Shown piece after piece: positions 6,260 to 59,534 of a DNA stretch of 64,000 bases. A model generated the notes under the pieces. That model was given only the letters and a program-made list of their open reading frames with translations, searched no databases and had not been told where the DNA came from. The translations under genes were made by a program, and so were the position numbers. Position 1 is the first letter of the stretch. Every line of letters starts with the position of its first letter. Source of the stretch: an uncultured Spirochaetota bacterium (GTDB taxonomy: Bacteria; Spirochaetota; UBA4802; UBA5550); the NCBI GenBank assembly GCA_942493035.1, contig OW818666.1, positions 3,936,813 through 4,000,812 on the forward strand, in the 5' to 3' direction.

Positions 6260-7069
6260 TTAAATTGCAACACTCCCTCTGGCTTCAATAAGATAATCTA
6301 TGGCGGAATCGGTATTGCCGGAAAATAGATGACATAAGCTGAGCGAAATAAGGTTATCTCTGGTTTTTGATGGAGTTTCTTCAAGTTTCTGAATTTTTTC
6401 TTCAATCGATCCATATTTGTCAGTGAGTATTGCAACAGGTATAGTTTTTACATAATCATTAAAGTTTTTAAATTTTTCTGAGCTGTTTTTGATCTGCTTG
6501 ATTTCATTTGCAGATTCTGCAGTTTTTCCTGAACTGAAAAGCAATTCCGATTTTATTCTCTGAATTGCATCAGAATTAGATTTAAGAGAGGATAATTTAT
6601 TTATAAACTTAAGAGAATCATCGATTCTACCCTGATTATGATAGAGAACTGCAAGAGAAGTAAGAGCTGTAGTGTTTACCGGATCTGTCATAAGGACATT
6701 AATGAAATTTGATTCAGCAGCTTTAAAATTATTTAATCTGCTGTAACATAGACCTATGAGTAAAAAATTCATGTGGAATTTGCTGTTTAGAAGTTTGGAT
6801 TTTTCCAGAACTAAAATTGCGTTTTTAAAATCTGCTTTTTTATAATACAGGCATCCTATATTGTAAAATGTAATGTAATCCTCTTTCAATGAGTTTGCTT
6901 TACAAAAAGATTTAATCGCCTGATCGAATCTTTTTAATTCGGTTAATTTTGCTGCTAATTCAATATATGCATCACGATCAGCTGGATTATGTCTTATATA
7001 ATCAACTATTTTTATCAGACTTTCATTATTGTATAACTCTGTCTGGTTATTATTTATTGTATTCAGCAT
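6260..7069 (-). CDS. Tetratricopeptide-repeat (TPR) protein
   Basis: 269 aa with several TPR-like units (YNIGCLYYKKADFKNAILVLEKS...). Confidence 0.55.
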   Translation of the reverse strand: MLNTINNNQTELYNNESLIKIVDYIRHNPADRDAYIELAAKLTELKRFDQAIKSFCKANSLKEDYITFYNIGCLYYKKADFKNAILVLEKSKLLNSKFHMNFLLIGLCYSRLNNFKAAESNFINVLMTDPVNTTALTSLAVLYHNQGRIDDSLKFINKLSSLKSNSDAIQRIKSELLFSSGKTAESANEIKQIKNSSEKFKNFNDYVKTIPVAILTDKYGSIEEKIQKLEETPSKTRDNLISLSLCHLFSGNTDSAIDYLIEARGSVAI

Positions 7070-7083
7070 TTTTCCCCGCTAAA

Positions 7084-8133
7084 CTATTCTGATTTTATAA
7101 CCCGGTTTCTTCCAAGAGCCTTTGCAGAGTATAAAGCTGTGTCTGATCTTTTAATGAGATCAATACCGCTTTTATCAATGTTATGGTTGAATTGAGCCAG
7201 ACCTATACTGATAGTTATATGAATATCTTTTTTATCATTTTTATATACTTCAGCTTCAATTTTTTTTCTTAAGCGTTCTGCTATAGTATATGCAGCATCA
7301 AGGTCTGTTTCTGTTAATATTATTGCAAATTCTTCGCCGCCGTATCTGGACGCTATGTCAAAAGCGCGAATATTCTGATGAATTATGGAGGCAGTTCCCT
7401 TTAAAATAACATCCCCCTGCTGGTGGCCATAGGTATCATTAATATCTTTGAAGTGATCCAGGTCGGCCATAATAAGGGTTAAGGGTGTACCCGTACGTTC
7501 TGATCTTTTTATTTCCTCTACAAGTCTCTCCTGAAAATAATGATGTATAAAGAGTCCTGTCATCCTGTCCAGGGTTGCCATTCTGTAAAGACGGGAATTT
7601 TCAACCGCTATTGAAGCAAATTTTGCCATTTTTTCAAGAAATAGAAAATCCTGGTCAGTATATGAATTTTCCATAATTTTCTGACTTAAAAATATAAGTC
7701 CATTAATTGAATTTTTAGATTTTAATGGAATTACTATTTCAGGCTTCAACATCTCATATGTTTCCTTTGTTGAAGGATCTGCAGACATAAGTTCTCTGGC
7801 CTTTTCAGAGTCTATTATGCCGCAATTTGAATAGAGATAATTGATTAGATTTGATTTTGATACTATTTTTAAATCAGGCTCAAGAGTATAACCCCGTGAC
7901 ATATATAAAGTAAGTTCATCATTTTCAAGATTGGAATTTAAAAAAATAGCAGCCTTATCGACAATCATCTGCCCTATGCATATATATAGAATTGATTCAA
8001 CAAGACTATCAAATTCAAGATTTGACGACAGACTTAAAGCAATTTCGAGCAGGTTTTGCAGGTCAAATACCATCTTCTCAAGATTGTCTCTATCAAGTGA
8101 ATTAATATGTTTATTATTATGAATAGTTGTCAT
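7084..8133 (-). CDS. Diguanylate cyclase, GAF-GGDEF
   Basis: 349 aa; C-terminal GGDEF domain with intact RYGGEEF motif; N-terminal GAF-like domain. Confidence 0.9.
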   Translation of the reverse strand: MTTIHNNKHINSLDRDNLEKMVFDLQNLLEIALSLSSNLEFDSLVESILYICIGQMIVDKAAIFLNSNLENDELTLYMSRGYTLEPDLKIVSKSNLINYLYSNCGIIDSEKARELMSADPSTKETYEMLKPEIVIPLKSKNSINGLIFLSQKIMENSYTDQDFLFLEKMAKFASIAVENSRLYRMATLDRMTGLFIHHYFQERLVEEIKRSERTGTPLTLIMADLDHFKDINDTYGHQQGDVILKGTASIIHQNIRAFDIASRYGGEEFAIILTETDLDAAYTIAERLRKKIEAEVYKNDKKDIHITISIGLAQFNHNIDKSGIDLIKRSDTALYSAKALGRNRVIKSE

Positions 8134-27316: not shown

Positions 27317-27460
27317 CTGCAAGCTCCTTTTATTATTATTTTATTAAACTATAAAAACTCTTAAAAAAAGTCAAGTATATTCAAAATTATATCCATTGTA
27401 TAATATTATTACATTATTGTATTAAAGCGGACAATTCAATTATTATAATTGAAGTCATAA

Positions 27461-27560
27461 TATATAGTAACTACTCATAAATTGCAGGTAATTATGATTT
27501 TCCCCGCGACTACGGCGCGGGGAAACAGATTTCACCACCGGTTTATGAACAGTTACTATA
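27461..27560. repeat. ~100-bp palindromic element with central GC hairpin (family B-like)
   Basis: Arms ATATATAGTAACTACTCATAAA / TTTATGAACAGTTACTATATAT flank the hairpin CCCCGCG-ACTAC-GGCGCGGGG. Confidence 0.4.
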
Positions 27561-27732
27561 TATAATAATTGCAAAAAATGAATAATGTTGACAAAAGTAT
27601 GGTTGGAATATGGAAAAGTATTTATAATTATAATAATGGGTTTGAAACTGTTTTTTACAGAAATAGTATTAGAAATTTTTTTAAAATATATAACAGGCAA
27701 ATGCCTTTTAAACAGAATGAGTGAGGTGCAAT

Positions 27733-35234: not shown

Positions 35235-36026
35235 TTATTTTAATTTGAAAGCGGGGGATCTTTTTTCAGTAAAAGCATTCATCCCCTCTTTCTGATCCTC
35301 TGTTGCGAAACATAGCGCAAATATCTGATTTTCAAATATTATAGCAGTTTCTAAATCAGTTTCGATTCCCCTGTTAATTGCCATTTTGGAATATCTCACT
35401 GCTATCTGGGCTTTAGATGCTATCTTTCCCGCCATATCAATTGCCACATCAATAAGATCTTCAAATGGAACAACCTTGTTTACAAGACCGATCTTTGCCG
35501 CTTCACAGGCAGAGATAGAATCACCCGTATAGATCAGTTCTTTTGCTTTTGCTATCCCTACGAGTCTGGGGAGACGGATACATCCTGAATAACCGGGAGT
35601 AATTCCAAGGCTTACCTCAGGCTGACCGAATTTTGCGTTCTCACTTGCGATTCTTAAATCACAAGCCATTGCAAGTTCGCAGCCCCCCCCAAGAGCAAAA
35701 CCGTTAACTGCTGCTATTGTAGGAATTTTCATTTTATCAATTTTGTTAAATACTGATGACCCGAGTTCACCCCAGGCCCGCCCCTCTTCGCTGTTATAAT
35801 TTTTCATTTCGTTTATGTCTGCACCTGCAACAAAGGATTTTCCGTCGCCTGTAATGATAAGTGCATAAACTTCAGAATCATCATTGACCATGTCAATGGC
35901 CTGTCCAAGTTCAATAAGCACCATTGCATTTAAAGCATTAAGCGATTTTGGTCTGGAAATTGTCAGGATGGCCACACGGCCCTCTTTCCGGTATTTGAGA
36001 TTTTCAAATTCATGTTCTGTTTTCAT
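35235..36026 (-). CDS. Enoyl-CoA hydratase (crotonase family)
   Basis: 263 aa; ALNAM...ITGDGKSFVAGADI and GGGCELAMACD crotonase-fold motifs. Confidence 0.9.
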   Translation of the reverse strand: MKTEHEFENLKYRKEGRVAILTISRPKSLNALNAMVLIELGQAIDMVNDDSEVYALIITGDGKSFVAGADINEMKNYNSEEGRAWGELGSSVFNKIDKMKIPTIAAVNGFALGGGCELAMACDLRIASENAKFGQPEVSLGITPGYSGCIRLPRLVGIAKAKELIYTGDSISACEAAKIGLVNKVVPFEDLIDVAIDMAGKIASKAQIAVRYSKMAINRGIETDLETAIIFENQIFALCFATEDQKEGMNAFTEKRSPAFKLK

Positions 36027-36112
36027 AATTTTAACCTTAATATTAAGATTCTGATACTACAAAGGAGATAACATATTAAGGGGGTAATTGGAATAGCCTT
36101 CGTATCTATTGA

Positions 36113-36166
36113 TTTGTGGTCGTATTAATTATTTTTCTGTGGCAGTGTGCGGCATTTGTTTTTTCT
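36113..36166. promoter_or_regulatory. Shared upstream motif, copy 1 (TTTGTGGTCGTATTAATTATTTTTCTGTGG...)
   Basis: 24-nt exact match to 42092-42148; lies upstream of the crotonase operon start. Confidence 0.4.
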
Positions 36167-36238
36167 ATAGAGTTTTGATGAGACTCCAGCCTAAATTATT
36201 AAATTGAAAAAGGTAAAAAATTTCTTGACAAAAATATA

Positions 36239-36266
36239 ATACTATATAGTATATTTCTATATAGAA
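36239..36266 (+). promoter_or_regulatory. Tandem palindromes ATACTATATAGTAT and TTCTATATAGAA in the MarR promoter; candidate MarR operator
   Basis: Perfect palindromes with CTATATAG core just downstream of a TTGACA box (36225-36230), 20-45 nt upstream of the MarR start. Confidence 0.4.
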
Positions 36267-36284
36267 TAAAAAGGATGAGTTCAT

Positions 36285-36731
36285 ATGGAAGAGTATCGCG
36301 GTGGTTTTCTTATAAGCCAAATAAAACAAATGAGTGGCAGATTATTCAATCAGCTGCTTTTAAAGAAGAATGTTGACGCCTTCAATGGAGAACAGGGACG
36401 TATTTTATATATTCTCTGGCAGGAAGATAGCATTACAATCCGGGAATTGGCAAATCGTACCGGGTTGGCTGTTACAACACTTACCAGCATGTTGGATCGG
36501 ATGGAGCAGGCAGAACTTATTGTTCGAAAATCTGACCCCGATGATAGAAGAAAGACATTAATTCAATTAGGGGAAAATGCCAGATCTTTGCAAAAGGATT
36601 ATGAAGAAGTATCCACAGAGATGGGCTCCCTGTTTTATCAAGGATTTAATAAGCAGGAAATACTGCAGTGTGAAAGGTATTTAATAAAAATATTAGAAAA
36701 TATGCAAGAAATAGAACAACAAAAGAAGTGA
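36285..36731 (+). CDS. MarR-family transcriptional regulator
   Basis: 148 aa; winged-helix core ITIRELANRTGLAVTTLTSMLDRMEQAELIVRKSDPDDRR. Confidence 0.85.
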   Translation: MEEYRGGFLISQIKQMSGRLFNQLLLKKNVDAFNGEQGRILYILWQEDSITIRELANRTGLAVTTLTSMLDRMEQAELIVRKSDPDDRRKTLIQLGENARSLQKDYEEVSTEMGSLFYQGFNKQEILQCERYLIKILENMQEIEQQKK

Positions 36732-36738
36732 AGTTTTT

Positions 36739-36861
36739 ATGATTTCTGTATACACCGGTTTCATAATGAGATTTGAAAGAAAAGGAATTATGAATAGAGT
36801 TAGAATACCTGCTGATGGAAAAGTTATTCTCTTTAGTAATAGAATCAAAATAGGAAAATGA
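36739..36861 (+). CDS. Small ORF (40 aa), translationally coupled to the following radical SAM gene
   Basis: MISVYTGFIMRFERKGIMNRVRIPADGKVILFSNRIKIGK; stop overlaps the ATG of the next gene (ATGATGG). Could be a chance ORF. Confidence 0.2.
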   Translation: MISVYTGFIMRFERKGIMNRVRIPADGKVILFSNRIKIGK

Positions 36862-37559
36862 TGGAAAAAATAGATATCAAACAATATATCAAAAACTTAG
36901 ATGCTGTTACGGGGTGCTCGATTGGCTGTAGTTATTGTTATGCCCGAGTTAACAATCAAAGATTTCCTGTTACAGTTGATTTTTCAGTACCGGAACTAAT
37001 AGAAAAACGGTTGAAACGAATCAGCACAAAAACTCCCAACATATATTTGATGACAAGTGCCAGCGATTTTTCCGGCTGGAAGGATGAATGGAGAGGTAGA
37101 GTTTTTGACTGTATGAAGCAGAATCCACAGCATATCTATTTGTTTTTAACAAAACGTCCGGACTTGATAGACTACTTTACAGACATGAAAAATGTCTGGT
37201 TTGGGGTTACGGTAAACAACAATGATGACAAAGCGCGTATTAAGATCATGAGAAAAAATATAAAGGCGTATCGTTATTTTATAACGTTCGAACCTTTACA
37301 TGAGGATTTAGGCAAACTTGATCTGGATGGGATTTCCTGGATTGTGATCGGCACGGAGACAGGAAAAAGAAAAGGAAAGATTGATGCAAGGGCAGAATGG
37401 GTAACGAATATTAGCAGACAAGCCCAAAAGTATAATATTCCGGTATTCATGAAGGCTGCACTTGAAGATGTTGTCAGGGGAGAGAATATGATACAAAACT
37501 TCCCGGATGACTTTAATAGAATATTTAAGCTGAATGGAAAGGAATTGCACTATGGTTGA
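36858..37559 (+). CDS. Radical SAM-like protein, Gp37/Gp68 (DUF5131)-type, SPL superfamily
   Basis: 233 aa; N-terminal CX3CX2C cluster GCSIGCSYCYA. Confidence 0.65.
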   Translation: MMEKIDIKQYIKNLDAVTGCSIGCSYCYARVNNQRFPVTVDFSVPELIEKRLKRISTKTPNIYLMTSASDFSGWKDEWRGRVFDCMKQNPQHIYLFLTKRPDLIDYFTDMKNVWFGVTVNNNDDKARIKIMRKNIKAYRYFITFEPLHEDLGKLDLDGISWIVIGTETGKRKGKIDARAEWVTNISRQAQKYNIPVFMKAALEDVVRGENMIQNFPDDFNRIFKLNGKELHYG

Positions 37560-38448
37560 AAAGATACAGGAGATTCATACAAAAAGTGTTTTGACAAAAT
37601 CAAATCTGCCGATAGCAGGATATTCAGTTAATCCGTATGTAGGATGTCCTCACAGTTGTAAGTATTGTTATGCCACTTTTATGAAGCGTTTTACAAACCA
37701 TACAGAACCATGGGGTACTTTTCTGGATGTCAAGAATTGGCCGCCTATAACCAATCCGAAAAAATATAAGGGAAAAACGATTATTATTGGTTCCGTTACA
37801 GATGCTTATCATCCGTTGGAAGAGAAATATAAACGCACACGGCAATTTTTAGAACAAATGCAGGGAAGCGAAGCAAATCTTATCATAACCACCAAGTCAG
37901 ATTTGGTGCTGCGGGATTTGGACCTGATAAAAACATTTCCCGATCCTCTGGTTTCCTGGTCAATCAATACTCTCGATGAGAATTTTCGCTCTGATATGGA
38001 TTCAGCTTCTTCCATTGAACAGAGGATCGCAGCCATGAAGATCTTTCATGATGCAGGTATTCGAACTACCTGTTTCATCTCACCGATATTTCCGGGGATA
38101 ACGGATGTTCTGGCAATAATCAACAGGATAAAAGATCAATGCGATTATATATGGCTTGAAAACTTGAACCTGAGAGGAGATTATAAATCTGTCATAATGA
38201 ATTATATTGAAAGTCGTTATCCTGATTTAGTTCCGTTATATAAAGAAATCTATCAAAACAAAAGCAGACAGTATTGGGAGGAATTGAATAATCAAATTGC
38301 TTCTTACACAGAACAGAATGGTTATTTATATCTTATTAACGAAGAACCATTTCAAAAAAATTCAACTGGAAAACCGATTATCATCAACTATTTTTACCAT
38401 GAAAAAATCCGGCAAACTGCTAAAAAAATAACACCTCAAAAATTCTGA
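37552..38448 (+). CDS. Radical SAM protein, spore-photoproduct-lyase (SplB/COG1533)-like
   Basis: About 298 aa from ATG 37552 (AAGGAA SD); N-terminal CX3CX2C cluster GCPHSCKYCYA; overlaps the previous gene. Confidence 0.75.
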   Translation: MVEKIQEIHTKSVLTKSNLPIAGYSVNPYVGCPHSCKYCYATFMKRFTNHTEPWGTFLDVKNWPPITNPKKYKGKTIIIGSVTDAYHPLEEKYKRTRQFLEQMQGSEANLIITTKSDLVLRDLDLIKTFPDPLVSWSINTLDENFRSDMDSASSIEQRIAAMKIFHDAGIRTTCFISPIFPGITDVLAIINRIKDQCDYIWLENLNLRGDYKSVIMNYIESRYPDLVPLYKEIYQNKSRQYWEELNNQIASYTEQNGYLYLINEEPFQKNSTGKPIIINYFYHEKIRQTAKKITPQKF

Positions 38449-38562
38449 GTTAAAACAATCAATACACAATATTCGACTTCTCTTGTTTCTATAATTTTTA
38501 ATCATACTGTTTCTTTGACATTCCTTTTTATAGATTAATACCATAAAGTATTTAAAAAATAG

Positions 38563-38610
38563 TACTATATAGAAATAAAATTACTTGACGAATAATATTA
38601 CTATATAGTA
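38563..38610 (+). promoter_or_regulatory. Two copies of the CTATATAG-core palindrome flanking a TTGACG box
   Basis: TACTATATAGA (38563-38573) and TACTATATAGTA (38599-38610), same motif as the MarR promoter operators. Confidence 0.35.
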
Positions 38611-38647
38611 CTGTTTTATATAGTAATATTATGGAGGTGTCTTTTAA

Positions 38648-38863
38648 ATGGATGATTTACAGTTAAAAAGAATAAGTAGCGACTTATTGAAAACTGCGGA
38701 GGTGGCATATTTATAAACGATAACTGGTGATGGTTTTCCTGAAACACGCGGATTATTAAATCTTAAGAATGAAAAGCAATTTCCAGATTATACATTACTA
38801 AAGATGAAACCGACGGTTGTAAAAGGGTATCATCAGGGCAATACTTACAAGTTGGAATTTTAA
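38648..38863 (+). pseudogene. Remnant of a pyridoxamine 5'-phosphate oxidase-like (PPOX/general stress protein 26) gene with in-frame TAA and truncated 3' end
   Basis: MDDLQLKRISSDLLKTAEVAYL*TITGDGFPETRGLLNLKNEK... reads like a PPOX-family N-terminus, interrupted by TAA at 38714-38716 and ending after about 70 codons. Confidence 0.35.
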
Positions 38864-38940
38864 AAAACACATATTTAGTGTTATTAAAACTACAGCATAA
38901 AATTTAAATTTATTTAAAATTAATATAACAGGAGAATAAG

Positions 38941-39330
38941 ATGAAAGGACAACAAGTAATTGAAACTTTTTATGAAGCTTTAGCAAAAGGAGATGTTCCA
39001 ACAGCATTTTCATTTTTTACAACAGATGTAAAGTGGAATCAACCAGGAAGTAATAAATTTTCAGGTATTAAAAACAATCCTGATGAAATTGGAGCTATGT
39101 TTGGTGAAATGTCGGCAGTCACAAATGGTACTTTGCTTATAGTTCCCAATGGTCCGTTGATGGTAAGTGGTGACTTGATAGCTTGCCCGGTAAGATTTAC
39201 CGGAAAAAAAGGGGATAAGAGTATGGATTTGACAGGACTTGACCTGTTTGAAGTGAAAACCGGCAAAATCACCCAGGTCTGGCTTTTCACTGAAGATCAA
39301 AAGAGCGAAGATGATTTCTGGGGGAAATAA
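38941..39330 (+). CDS. NTF2-like / SnoaL-like small protein
   Basis: 129 aa; N-terminus MKGQQVIETFYEALAKGDVPTAFSFFTTDVKWNQPG typical of the ketosteroid-isomerase-like fold; AGGAG SD. Confidence 0.55.
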   Translation: MKGQQVIETFYEALAKGDVPTAFSFFTTDVKWNQPGSNKFSGIKNNPDEIGAMFGEMSAVTNGTLLIVPNGPLMVSGDLIACPVRFTGKKGDKSMDLTGLDLFEVKTGKITQVWLFTEDQKSEDDFWGK

Positions 39331-39404
39331 AATATTATTCAAAAATCTGAATACTTTGTAGAAATGGCGTTGAAACTCTCTGTGTGATATCACAGATTAC
39401 TGTT

Positions 39405-39441
39405 TAAAAAAGAGAGCCGCTGAATTAGCGGCTCTCTTTCA
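39405..39441. terminator. Rho-independent terminator, bidirectional
   Basis: AAAAAAGAGAGCCGCTGAATTAGCGGCTCTCTTTCAC between convergent genes. Confidence 0.65.
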
Positions 39442-39462
39442 CAAAAGTATGACAGTAAAATA

Positions 39463-40659
39463 TCAGTAAGTGTAGTTATATTTTCCATCTTTTGTAAGAT
39501 ATTTACCTATAACCATTCTCTGCACCTGAACTGTACCTTCGAATATCTGCATAATCTTTGCATCTCTCATGAATTTTTCTGCGGGATACTCTTTTGAATA
39601 TCCGTAGCCGCCGAAAATCTGCACTGCATCAACTGTGTTTTTCATAGCAGTATCTGCTGCGTACATTTTAGCCATGTTTGAGAGCATTTTAAAAGGGAGA
39701 CCGTTATCCTGAAGCCATGCAGCTTTCTGATAAAGAAGTCTGGCTGCTTCGGTAGTTGTGGCCATGTCAGCCAGCATAAAATGTATTGCCTGGAATGATG
39801 AGATCGGTTTTCCGAACTGTTTTCTTTCGTTTGAATATGCAAGCGCTGCGTTGAGTGCACCGGTTGATATACCTGTAGCCATAGCTGCAACAGCTGTTCT
39901 TGAGTAGTCAAGAGTCTCCATAAGTATTGCAGTTCCATTCCCCTCTCCGCCGATACACATCCAGCCGGGAACTCTTACATCATCAAATATTACTTCAGTT
40001 GTACTTGTGCTTCTAATACCGAGTTTATCCTCTTTGTTTCCGATTTTGACACCTGGAAAATCCCGGTCTACCATGAAGCAGCAGATACCCTTATTGCCGA
40101 GACTTTTGTCTATAGTGGCAAAAACAGAAAACTGTTTTGCGAATCCGCCGTTTGTAATAAACTGTTTTGTTCCGTTAAGAATCCAGTCGTTTCCATCTTT
40201 TGTGCATTTCATTGACATTCCAAGAGCATCGGATCCTGCACCCGGCTCTGTGAGACAGAACGCGCACATTGCACCTTCAAGCATTCTTCCGAACCACCAT
40301 TTTTTCTGCTCGTCATTTGCTCCAACCATAATCGGATCGGCAGCGAGGAGTGAAGATGCAACAACGGTTGTTGCTATTCCGGCATCTCTCTGTCCCAGTT
40401 CGTCAATTACTGTGTATCTTGTGAGGTTGTCAAGTCCCTGTCCGCCGTATTCTCCGGGAACTCCTATGTTTGTTAGACCAAGATCGTGCATTTTTGCAAG
40501 TACATCCATTGGAACTTTGTCTTCATGATCCCACTGACCGGCGAAGGGTTTGATCTCTTTGTCGGCAAACTCAGCAGTCATCTGCCTGATCATCTCCTGC
40601 TCTTCTGTAAGTCTGAATCCGAATCCGCTCTCTACCTGGCTGCTTATTACTGTATTCAT
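39463..40659 (-). CDS. Acyl-CoA dehydrogenase (butyryl-CoA dehydrogenase-like)
   Basis: About 398 aa from ATG 40659 (AGAGGA SD; the track extension runs through a repeat); ACAD N-, middle and C-terminal domain features. Confidence 0.9.
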   Translation of the reverse strand: MNTVISSQVESGFGFRLTEEQEMIRQMTAEFADKEIKPFAGQWDHEDKVPMDVLAKMHDLGLTNIGVPGEYGGQGLDNLTRYTVIDELGQRDAGIATTVVASSLLAADPIMVGANDEQKKWWFGRMLEGAMCAFCLTEPGAGSDALGMSMKCTKDGNDWILNGTKQFITNGGFAKQFSVFATIDKSLGNKGICCFMVDRDFPGVKIGNKEDKLGIRSTSTTEVIFDDVRVPGWMCIGGEGNGTAILMETLDYSRTAVAAMATGISTGALNAALAYSNERKQFGKPISSFQAIHFMLADMATTTEAARLLYQKAAWLQDNGLPFKMLSNMAKMYAADTAMKNTVDAVQIFGGYGYSKEYPAEKFMRDAKIMQIFEGTVQVQRMVIGKYLTKDGKYNYTY

Positions 40660-59224: not shown

Positions 59225-59362
59225 AAAAAAGCCGCGTACGGAGGAACGCGGCATATACATTGATAATCTATAGTTATTGTACTGCCGTTTCCCTCCGCCG
59301 GTATTAACCGGATCAGGTAAAAAGGGTATAATCTCAGCACGCATTTACTGCGGCACCCCTAA
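59225..59362 (-). promoter_or_regulatory. TPP (THI-box) riboswitch with terminator expression platform
   Basis: Minus strand reads UAGGGGUGCCGCAGUAAAUGCGUGCUGAGAUUAUACCCUUUUACCUGAUCCGGUUAAUACCGGCGGAGGGAAACGG, then hairpin GCCGCGUUCCUCCGUACGCGGC plus U-run, then GGAGGAA SD and the thi4 AUG. Confidence 0.9.
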
Positions 59363-59534
59363 CGGTAAAAATTTTATCAAAGAACTGATTTATTAAAAAA
59401 TCTACCGGGCATTGATGTCAATTAATTATTATATTTTTAATCTAATAAAAATATAATAATTTAAAGCGCTGTGAATTTCTATTATAAACAAGCCAGTGTC
59501 GAAAAACCATGATTCTAAAAACTAGCTGATATTA

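Follow-up and report, generated by a model that had tools for sequence, protein, structure and literature searches.

In the mar operator (marO) of Escherichia coli, site I lies between the -35 and -10 elements of the promoter and site II near the ribosome-binding site. The same layout is seen in a 64-kb stretch of DNA from an uncultured Spirochaetota bacterium (assembly GCA_942493035.1, contig OW818666.1, nt 3,936,813–4,000,812; hereafter the window, positions being counted from its first nucleotide). A small island in this window carries a MarR-family gene (marR), the two genes of a 'radical SAM mobile pair' (pair A and pair B) and, behind a second promoter, a decayed gene of the pyridoxamine 5'-phosphate oxidase-like (PNPOx-like) family and an intact SnoaL_2 gene. 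Palindromes with the core CTATATAG occur at both promoters, and very probably they are the operators of the MarR repressor encoded at nt 36285–36731, acquired together with its targets in two transcription units.

Dimers of E. coli MarR occupy two similar sites in marO, with a footprint of 21 bp, and OhrR contacts the -10 element and so blocks RNA polymerase (PMC2724296). The window locus resembles the E. coli MarR/marO system in having a winged-helix, MarR-family repressor encoded inside its own operon and two similar dyad sites per promoter. The operator sequence, however, is unrelated, the window protein is a distant relative (32 bits with the NCBIfam MarR model), and in place of marA and efflux control the targets are radical SAM enzymes and FMN-binding proteins. 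Matches of the window MarR to sequences in the PDB are all MarR-family proteins, and the best solved structure among them (E 5e-10) is OhrR of Bacillus subtilis with the ohrA operator (PDB 1z91 / 1z9c). The contact with the -10 element that blocks polymerase in OhrR is also what would be expected of the first palindrome of the window, although the two operator sequences differ. OhrR senses peroxide via a conserved cysteine, whereas the sole cysteine of the window MarR, C128, is F, I or L in most of its relatives; because the clade has no conserved cysteine, a thiol switch of the OhrR type is argued against.

The closest described gene set is the 'radical SAM mobile pair' cassette of NCBIfam (TIGR04472/TIGR04471/TIGR04470), to which marR, pair A and pair B, consecutive on the + strand, correspond. 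The window has the same three genes, in the same order and with the same operator core, as cassettes scoring over the curated cut-offs, but its MarR (176 vs 240 bits) and pair A (296 vs 355 bits) fall under them; in the branch to which both belong, fuller relatives have MBL-fold hydrolase, PNPOx and flavin-reductase genes as well. In versions linked to an HxlR or AraC regulator, pair B is likewise found with pair A, MBL, PNPOx or flavin reductase, but the regulator is of a different family and the CTATATAG palindrome is missing. One such version is carried by Bacteroides fragilis plasmid NZ_CP069564.1 (L094) and some 20 near-identical Bacteroidales plasmids, where MBL, pair A and pair B lie beside a divergent AraC gene without any palindrome. 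On Selenomonas plasmid pSRC6, the cassette of MarR, pair A and pair B adjoins a chloramphenicol acetyltransferase gene. Annotation pipelines have a name for the mobile pair, which is found in thousands of genomes from the gut and the environment and on plasmids; a search for literature on its function, control or operator found none, the sole match being a table entry for DUF5131.

Palindromes at the two promoters

The predicted marR promoter (nt 36225–36252, + strand) is the best sigma-70-like match in nt 35900–39600, at 10/12 positions, and consists of a -35 element TTGACA (nt 36225–36230), a 16-nt spacer and a -10 element TAGTAT (nt 36247–36252). In an alignment with 70 related promoters (see below), its -35 falls on their conserved TTGACA. 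The first putative operator, O1 (ATACTATATAGTAT, nt 36239–36252), is a perfect 14-bp palindrome in the spacer that extends over the -10; the marR start codon follows 33 nt further on. A second, O2 (TTCTATATAGAA, nt 36255–36266), lies 15 bp further downstream, after the -10 but ahead of the ribosome-binding site. A first-pass annotation of this DNA, which had proposed that such palindromes overlap the MarR promoter, was correct in this, as the 14-bp palindrome spans both spacer and -10 of the best predicted promoter. The idea that O2 forms an RNA hairpin hiding the ribosome-binding site was dropped without folding; the stem would be 3–4 A-U-rich pairs.

The promoter of the decayed PNPOx-like gene has a -35-like TTGACG (nt 38585–38590, + strand), which aligns with the -35 of the marR promoter and with those of the PNPOx promoter of locus L014 and the pair A promoter of locus L018. 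Eight nucleotides after it lies a putative O1, an exact 12-mer TACTATATAGTA (nt 38599–38610), and 15 bp from this a putative O2, TTTTATATAGTA (nt 38614–38625), directly before GGAGG. Upstream of the -35 there is a further operator-like palindrome, TACTATATAGAA (nt 38563–38574), within a 30-nt inverted repeat that flanks TTGACG. A degenerate palindrome, TACCATAAAGTA (nt 38539–38550), falls on the -10 of another promoter-like match (TTGACA at nt 38515), but it is weak and its role uncertain. The whole region (nt 38553–38632) is built of nested inverted repeats, comprising the 30-nt pair around TTGACG and a perfect 16-nt pair (nt 38592–38607 / 38617–38632) which joins the outer halves of O1 and O2. 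The similarity of the two promoters is such that their two-site module (nt 36236–36264 vs nt 38595–38623; 29 nt, 83% identity) is the longest direct repeat in nt 36000–39500. That palindromes recur around a TTGACG upstream of a decayed gene, 2.3 kb downstream of the marR promoter, had been noted in the first-pass annotation, and the strings it quoted (ATACTATATAGTAT, TTCTATATAGAA, TACTATATAGA at nt 38563–38573, TTGACG and TACTATATAGTA) were all found where it had placed them; its inventory was incomplete, missing TTTTATATAGTA and the degenerate TACCATAAAGTA.

A palindrome frequency explicable by base composition, which that annotation had named as the outcome that would speak against it, is not what was observed within the window. 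There are 4 copies of CTATATAG, compared with a mean of 1.04 in dinucleotide-preserving shuffles (1 of 100 shuffles reaches 4), and all of them lie within two promoter-like stretches, nt 36239–36266 upstream of marR and nt 38563–38625 upstream of the broken PNPOx-like gene. The 60.7 kb of the window outside the island contain 0 copies. The 12-mer consensus of the palindromes, TACTATATAGTA, occurs exactly twice, once in each of the two promoter regions (0.00 in shuffles), and when up to two mismatches are allowed there are 16 matches in the window as against 2.85 expected. Near-matches at nt 27458 and nt 27554 were rejected as operator sites, being the arms of an unrelated inverted repeat (TATATATAGTAACT / AGTTACTATATATA, nt 27455–27570). 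This repeat encloses a GC-rich hairpin (ttccccgcg...cgcggggaa), is situated between an outer-membrane beta-barrel gene and purE, and has no Rfam match.

Conservation of the putative operator and its proposed regulon

The window was compared with 80 loci of other species encoding MarR relatives at 53–76% identity, some of the phylum labels being taken from metagenome bins. The 12-mer (at most 1 mismatch) is present within 160 bp upstream of marR in 67 of these loci, which belong to several phyla. Its density in this upstream zone is 5.8 sites/kb, compared with 0.016/kb in the remaining 638 kb, an enrichment of about 370-fold. Even among the 10 sites outside the zone, 7 are in other promoters of the same gene sets: 4 precede the gene located before marR in the operon, 2 a PNPOx gene and 1 a pair A gene.

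Aligned on the motif, 70 distinct promoters display a common architecture, in which TTGACA is followed by 7 nt (54/70) and the 12-mer, the final TA of which opens a -10 of the form TAnwAT. In 41/70 another CTATATAG core comes exactly 15 bp further on, and GGAGG and the start codon follow. Within the 12-mer, C3, A5, T6, A7 and A12 are found in 70/70 promoters and T1, T8, G10 and T11 in 69/70; the core positions are more informative than the -35 hexamer. The dyad symmetry extends outside the 12-mer, as the flanking pair 0/13 is complementary in 34/69 promoters (16.9 expected; reached in 0/5000 shuffles), a figure that is not a probability, the sequences being related. In Clostridium sp. SHJSY1, the MarR of which is 77% identical to that of the window, O1 is identical.

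The window marR (nt 36285–36731, + strand) is intact, encodes 148 aa and retains all clade-invariant residues. Its DNA-binding domain (residues 36–90; Pfam PF01047, 62.2 bits, cut-off 24.6) contains the majority of the positions at which 30 clade members do not vary, among them T64, L66, T67, M69, L70, R72, D87 and R89, in keeping with a conserved operator core. With the NCBIfam model for the MarR regulator of the mobile pair (TIGR04472) the window protein scores 176.4 bits, and most of the relatives that share the operator score 170–216 bits, under the cut-off of 240. Since members over the cut-off (L077, 288 bits; L044, 273 bits; the annotated MarR of Selenomonas plasmid pSRC6) share the same core, the operator is common to a clade wider than the curated TIGR04472. 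Conversely, the motif is absent where pair B is accompanied by an HxlR (L001, L002, L004) or AraC regulator (Bacteroides plasmids), which ties it to MarR and not to the enzymes.

As a test of specificity, metagenome and viral contigs were scanned independently of MarR for the pattern CTATATAGTA-N5-CTATATAG. Among the 136 matches, 23 are MarR-clade promoters and 51 belong to an unrelated repeated element near a Cro/C1-type helix-turn-helix (HTH) gene. Because the two-palindrome pattern is not exclusive to MarR, its specificity must be judged in promoter context. The repeated element, CTATATAGTACCTCACTATATAGTGAATTACTACATAAAGATTTA, has a CTATATAG pair at 15-bp spacing directly upstream of an 81-aa Cro/C1-type HTH gene. 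It was seen at L128:2453-2743, L140:1146-1436 and about 50 other metagenome loci (L097, L100, L101 etc.), mostly on human-gut contigs and on two viral contigs, and is unrelated to the MarR clade.

The gene content of the compared loci indicates which genes would be under this control. Directly after MarR, the 80 loci have a flavin-reductase-like gene in 24 cases, a PNPOx-like gene in 18 and a gene for a small unannotated protein in 15; the remainder have pair A with pair B, pair B alone or an MBL-fold hydrolase. The commonest cargo of the clade consists of PNPOx-like and flavin-reductase genes. The closest MarR relatives (72–74% identity) have an operon of the order MarR-(MBL)-pair B-PNPOx-flavin reductase-pair A, whose promoter holds two exact 12-mers. 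In Clostridium estertheticum, the homologue of the window's PNPOx remnant is divergent from marR and has its own promoter, TTGACA-N8-TACTATATGGTA-N3-TTCTATATAGTA, which aligns base for base with window nt 38585–38625. A pair A gene from Fusobacteriaceae likewise has its own promoter with the same two-site module. These comparisons support the PNPOx-like gene as a regular member of the MarR regulon. The small protein family (117–138 aa; L013:5001-5417, L021:4984-5340 and 13 others), which has no Pfam or NCBIfam match, is apparently an unannotated member of the regulon; an NCBIfam search gave no names for the cargo families. On metagenome contig L099 (nt 6290–7688), TTGACA-atag-TACTATATAGTA-cta-TACTATATAGTG precedes PNPOx-like and alpha/beta hydrolase genes, and no clade MarR is encoded within about 6 kb of this two-site promoter, which suggests regulation in trans.

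The proposal of the first-pass annotation, a MarR mini-regulon covering marR itself, the radical SAM genes and the decayed gene, is accordingly one that the genome comparison supports well. The regulon is not peculiar to this genome, however, but a family-wide feature of a horizontally acquired island. The first unit would comprise marR, pair A and pair B, and the second the PNPOx-like pseudogene followed by the intact SnoaL_2 gene. Each would open with a sigma-70-type promoter in which O1 fills the spacer and overlaps the -10, and O2, 15 bp downstream, would cover the likely transcription start and the 5' leader as far as the ribosome-binding site; the PNPOx promoter has an additional palindrome copy upstream of its -35. 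MarR dimers on O1 and O2 would block RNA polymerase, repressing marR itself and both units, and a small molecule or stress would release MarR, as in other MarR systems. This would be ordinary, textbook MarR repression, and the layout matches that of MarR-family repressors.

The value of the finding lies less in this mechanism than in an operator and regulon for an uncharacterised, widespread and mobile radical SAM system. Operator and co-regulated gene list provide a probe for binding assays and a promoter-reporter for inducer screening, and suggest, as a hypothesis, a joint action of radical SAM enzymes and FMN-binding proteins. More speculatively, the MarR clade and the TACTATATAGTA operator could form one mobile, inducible module, all the cargo of which handles a single class of xenobiotic or damage, with the radical SAM pair acting together with flavoproteins; we put this forward tentatively, regarding it as a little more doubtful than not. 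The interchangeable cargo of such a module may include PNPOx-like and flavin-reductase-like FMN proteins, an MBL-fold hydrolase, a glyoxalase-type protein and the radical SAM pair. If this is true, the operator would be a ready biosensor for the inducer and hence for the function of the radical SAM pair.

Alternative readings of the palindromes

Several observations weigh against MarR repression of both units. With 8–12 bp (14 if the flanks are counted), the conserved core falls short of the 21 bp in the footprint of E. coli MarR, and the fit of a dimer on it is uncertain. The two-palindrome pattern is, as seen above, not exclusive to the clade. The marR promoter of the window has 9 nt from the -35 to the 12-mer, compared with the usual 7, which gives either a 19-nt spacer to TATATT or the weaker TAGTAT as -10; because of this, expression of marR in the Spirochaetota host is uncertain. 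The -10 of the PNPOx promoter is poor (TACTGT), relatives have a shorter gap than the 126 bp from marR to pair A, and the motif counts refer to the 64-kb window of a 4.9-Mb genome. Binding, repression as opposed to activation, the transcription start, co-transcription and release by an inducer are proposed on the basis of sequence comparison.

The alternative that survives best accepts the marR-promoter operators as functional and regards the second cluster (nt 38539–38625) as a fossil of a once-regulated PNPOx gene, with no present output. The gene behind the cluster is dead, its frame being interrupted by a stop at codon 23 and shortened by about 80 codons. The -10 predicted for its promoter is weak, other loci do not have SnoaL_2 as a recurrent partner, and a possible MBL remnant points to other decay in the island. 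Against this, the sites have remained intact (an exact 12-mer, a copy with 1 mismatch and another with 2) and have kept the 15-bp spacing, and the pseudogene is young enough to align at 46–49% identity with its homologue. The intact SnoaL_2 gene also lies downstream on the same strand, with no terminator predicted between nt 38626 and nt 38941, and may now be driven by the PNPOx promoter. A fossil cluster is for these reasons considered unlikely. As regards the decayed gene as a target of the regulon, suggested by the first-pass annotation, its family membership holds, but the second promoter may by now serve SnoaL_2 instead.

An improbable reading is that MarR does not bind the palindrome, and that this serves as a promoter element or is recognised by a different factor, for instance a host protein or an alternative sigma factor. 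The -10 begins within the right half of O1, so that part of the conservation there is promoter conservation, and CTATATAG pairs also adjoin the unrelated HTH genes. The conserved left half (C3, T4, A5) nevertheless mirrors the right one and lies in the promoter spacer; since spacers of sigma-70 promoters are little constrained, its conservation goes beyond promoter function. O2 is downstream of the -10. The motif moves with MarR across several phyla and plasmids, MarR being the only DNA-binding protein that is always present, and is gone when HxlR or AraC replaces it.

A role as recombination sites or terminal repeats of a mobile cassette, instead of transcription signals, might be suggested by the sporadic distribution of the cassette, by recombinase genes nearby on plasmids and by the lack of other obvious end repeats in the island, but it is very improbable: the sites are away from the island ends (nt 36153 and nt 39405), keep a fixed distance to -35, -10 and ribosome-binding site in 70 promoters, and the island has no recombinase gene. 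Chance AT-rich sequence in an AT-rich genome (the window has 37% GC and a few 2-mismatch matches elsewhere) is refuted by the excess over shuffles and the 370-fold enrichment at the promoters of 80 MarR loci.

Genes and origin of the island

The acquired island (nt 36153–39405, + strand; 3.25 kb) contains both promoters, marR, pair A, pair B, the remnant and SnoaL_2. Relatives of its AlaS assign the host to uncultured Spirochaetota. The bounds of the island follow from comparison with a sister Spirochaetota genome (L091; AlaS 94% identical), with which similarity stops at nt 36152 and restarts at nt 39406. Gene order is the same in L091, but there the acyl-CoA dehydrogenase and enoyl-CoA hydratase genes are separated by 239 bp (L091:7234-7471) without the island, while in the relative L093 a DUF362 gene lies between them (L093:5265-7504). 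The spacer between these two genes (window flanks nt 36027–36152 and nt 39406–39462) is thus variable among relatives, being empty or occupied by DUF362 or the MarR island. The island has a lower G+C content than the rest of the window (0.342 vs 0.375), its nearest relatives are clostridial, and it lacks a recombinase gene and other obvious end repeats. Most likely, regulator, sites and target genes were acquired together by horizontal transfer, and the locus shows that this Spirochaetota lineage recently imported genes from Clostridia-like bacteria, an import already in decay; with its PNPOx pseudogene and possible MBL remnant the island looks eroded.

Pair A (DUF5131; nt 36858–37559, + strand), with the cluster motif CSIGCSYC, matches TIGR04471 with 296.4 bits (cut-off 355) over profile positions 2–219/220 and Pfam DUF5131 with 120.9 bits. 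Pair B (nt 37552–38448, + strand; the 298-aa form is P0001), with the motif CPHSCKYC, is a full-length match to TIGR04470 (477.5 bits, cut-off 410). The CX3CX2C motif is kept in both, and the two genes share 8 nt. The MarR stop codon of relatives overlaps or abuts the gene that follows, and in the window the 126-bp gap from marR to pair A contains no predicted terminator; marR and the two pair genes are probably transcribed as one unit. The gap includes a possible remnant of the C-terminus of an MBL-fold hydrolase (nt 36736–36828, + strand), detected by tblastn of the L086 MBL protein against the island alone (residues 216–252, the last 37 residues; 38% identity, E 0.006). Tentatively, this is probably what a deletion has left of the MBL gene of the fuller operons.

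The decayed PNPOx-like gene (FMN-binding split barrel; nt 38648–38863, + strand) has an in-frame TAA at nt 38714–38716 (codon 23) and lacks some 80 internal codons, corresponding to homologue residues 48–127, so that its frame is not intact. By BLASTP it is 49% identical to a 156-aa protein of C. estertheticum over residues 1–47 (E 7e-17) and 46% over residues 128–153 (E 7e-8). A Pfam search of the remnant alone gave no match, and it is assigned to the pyridoxamine 5'-phosphate oxidase-like family because this homologue, which matches Pfam Pyrid_ox_like (57.6 bits) and PNPOx_N, belongs there. The SnoaL_2 gene (nt 38941–39330, + strand; Pfam SnoaL_2, 45 bits) is intact and inside the island, and was not seen as a recurrent neighbour in other MarR loci. 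The island has no Rfam family; the only one in the window is a TPP riboswitch (RF00059, 73 bits) on the - strand at nt 59273–59370.

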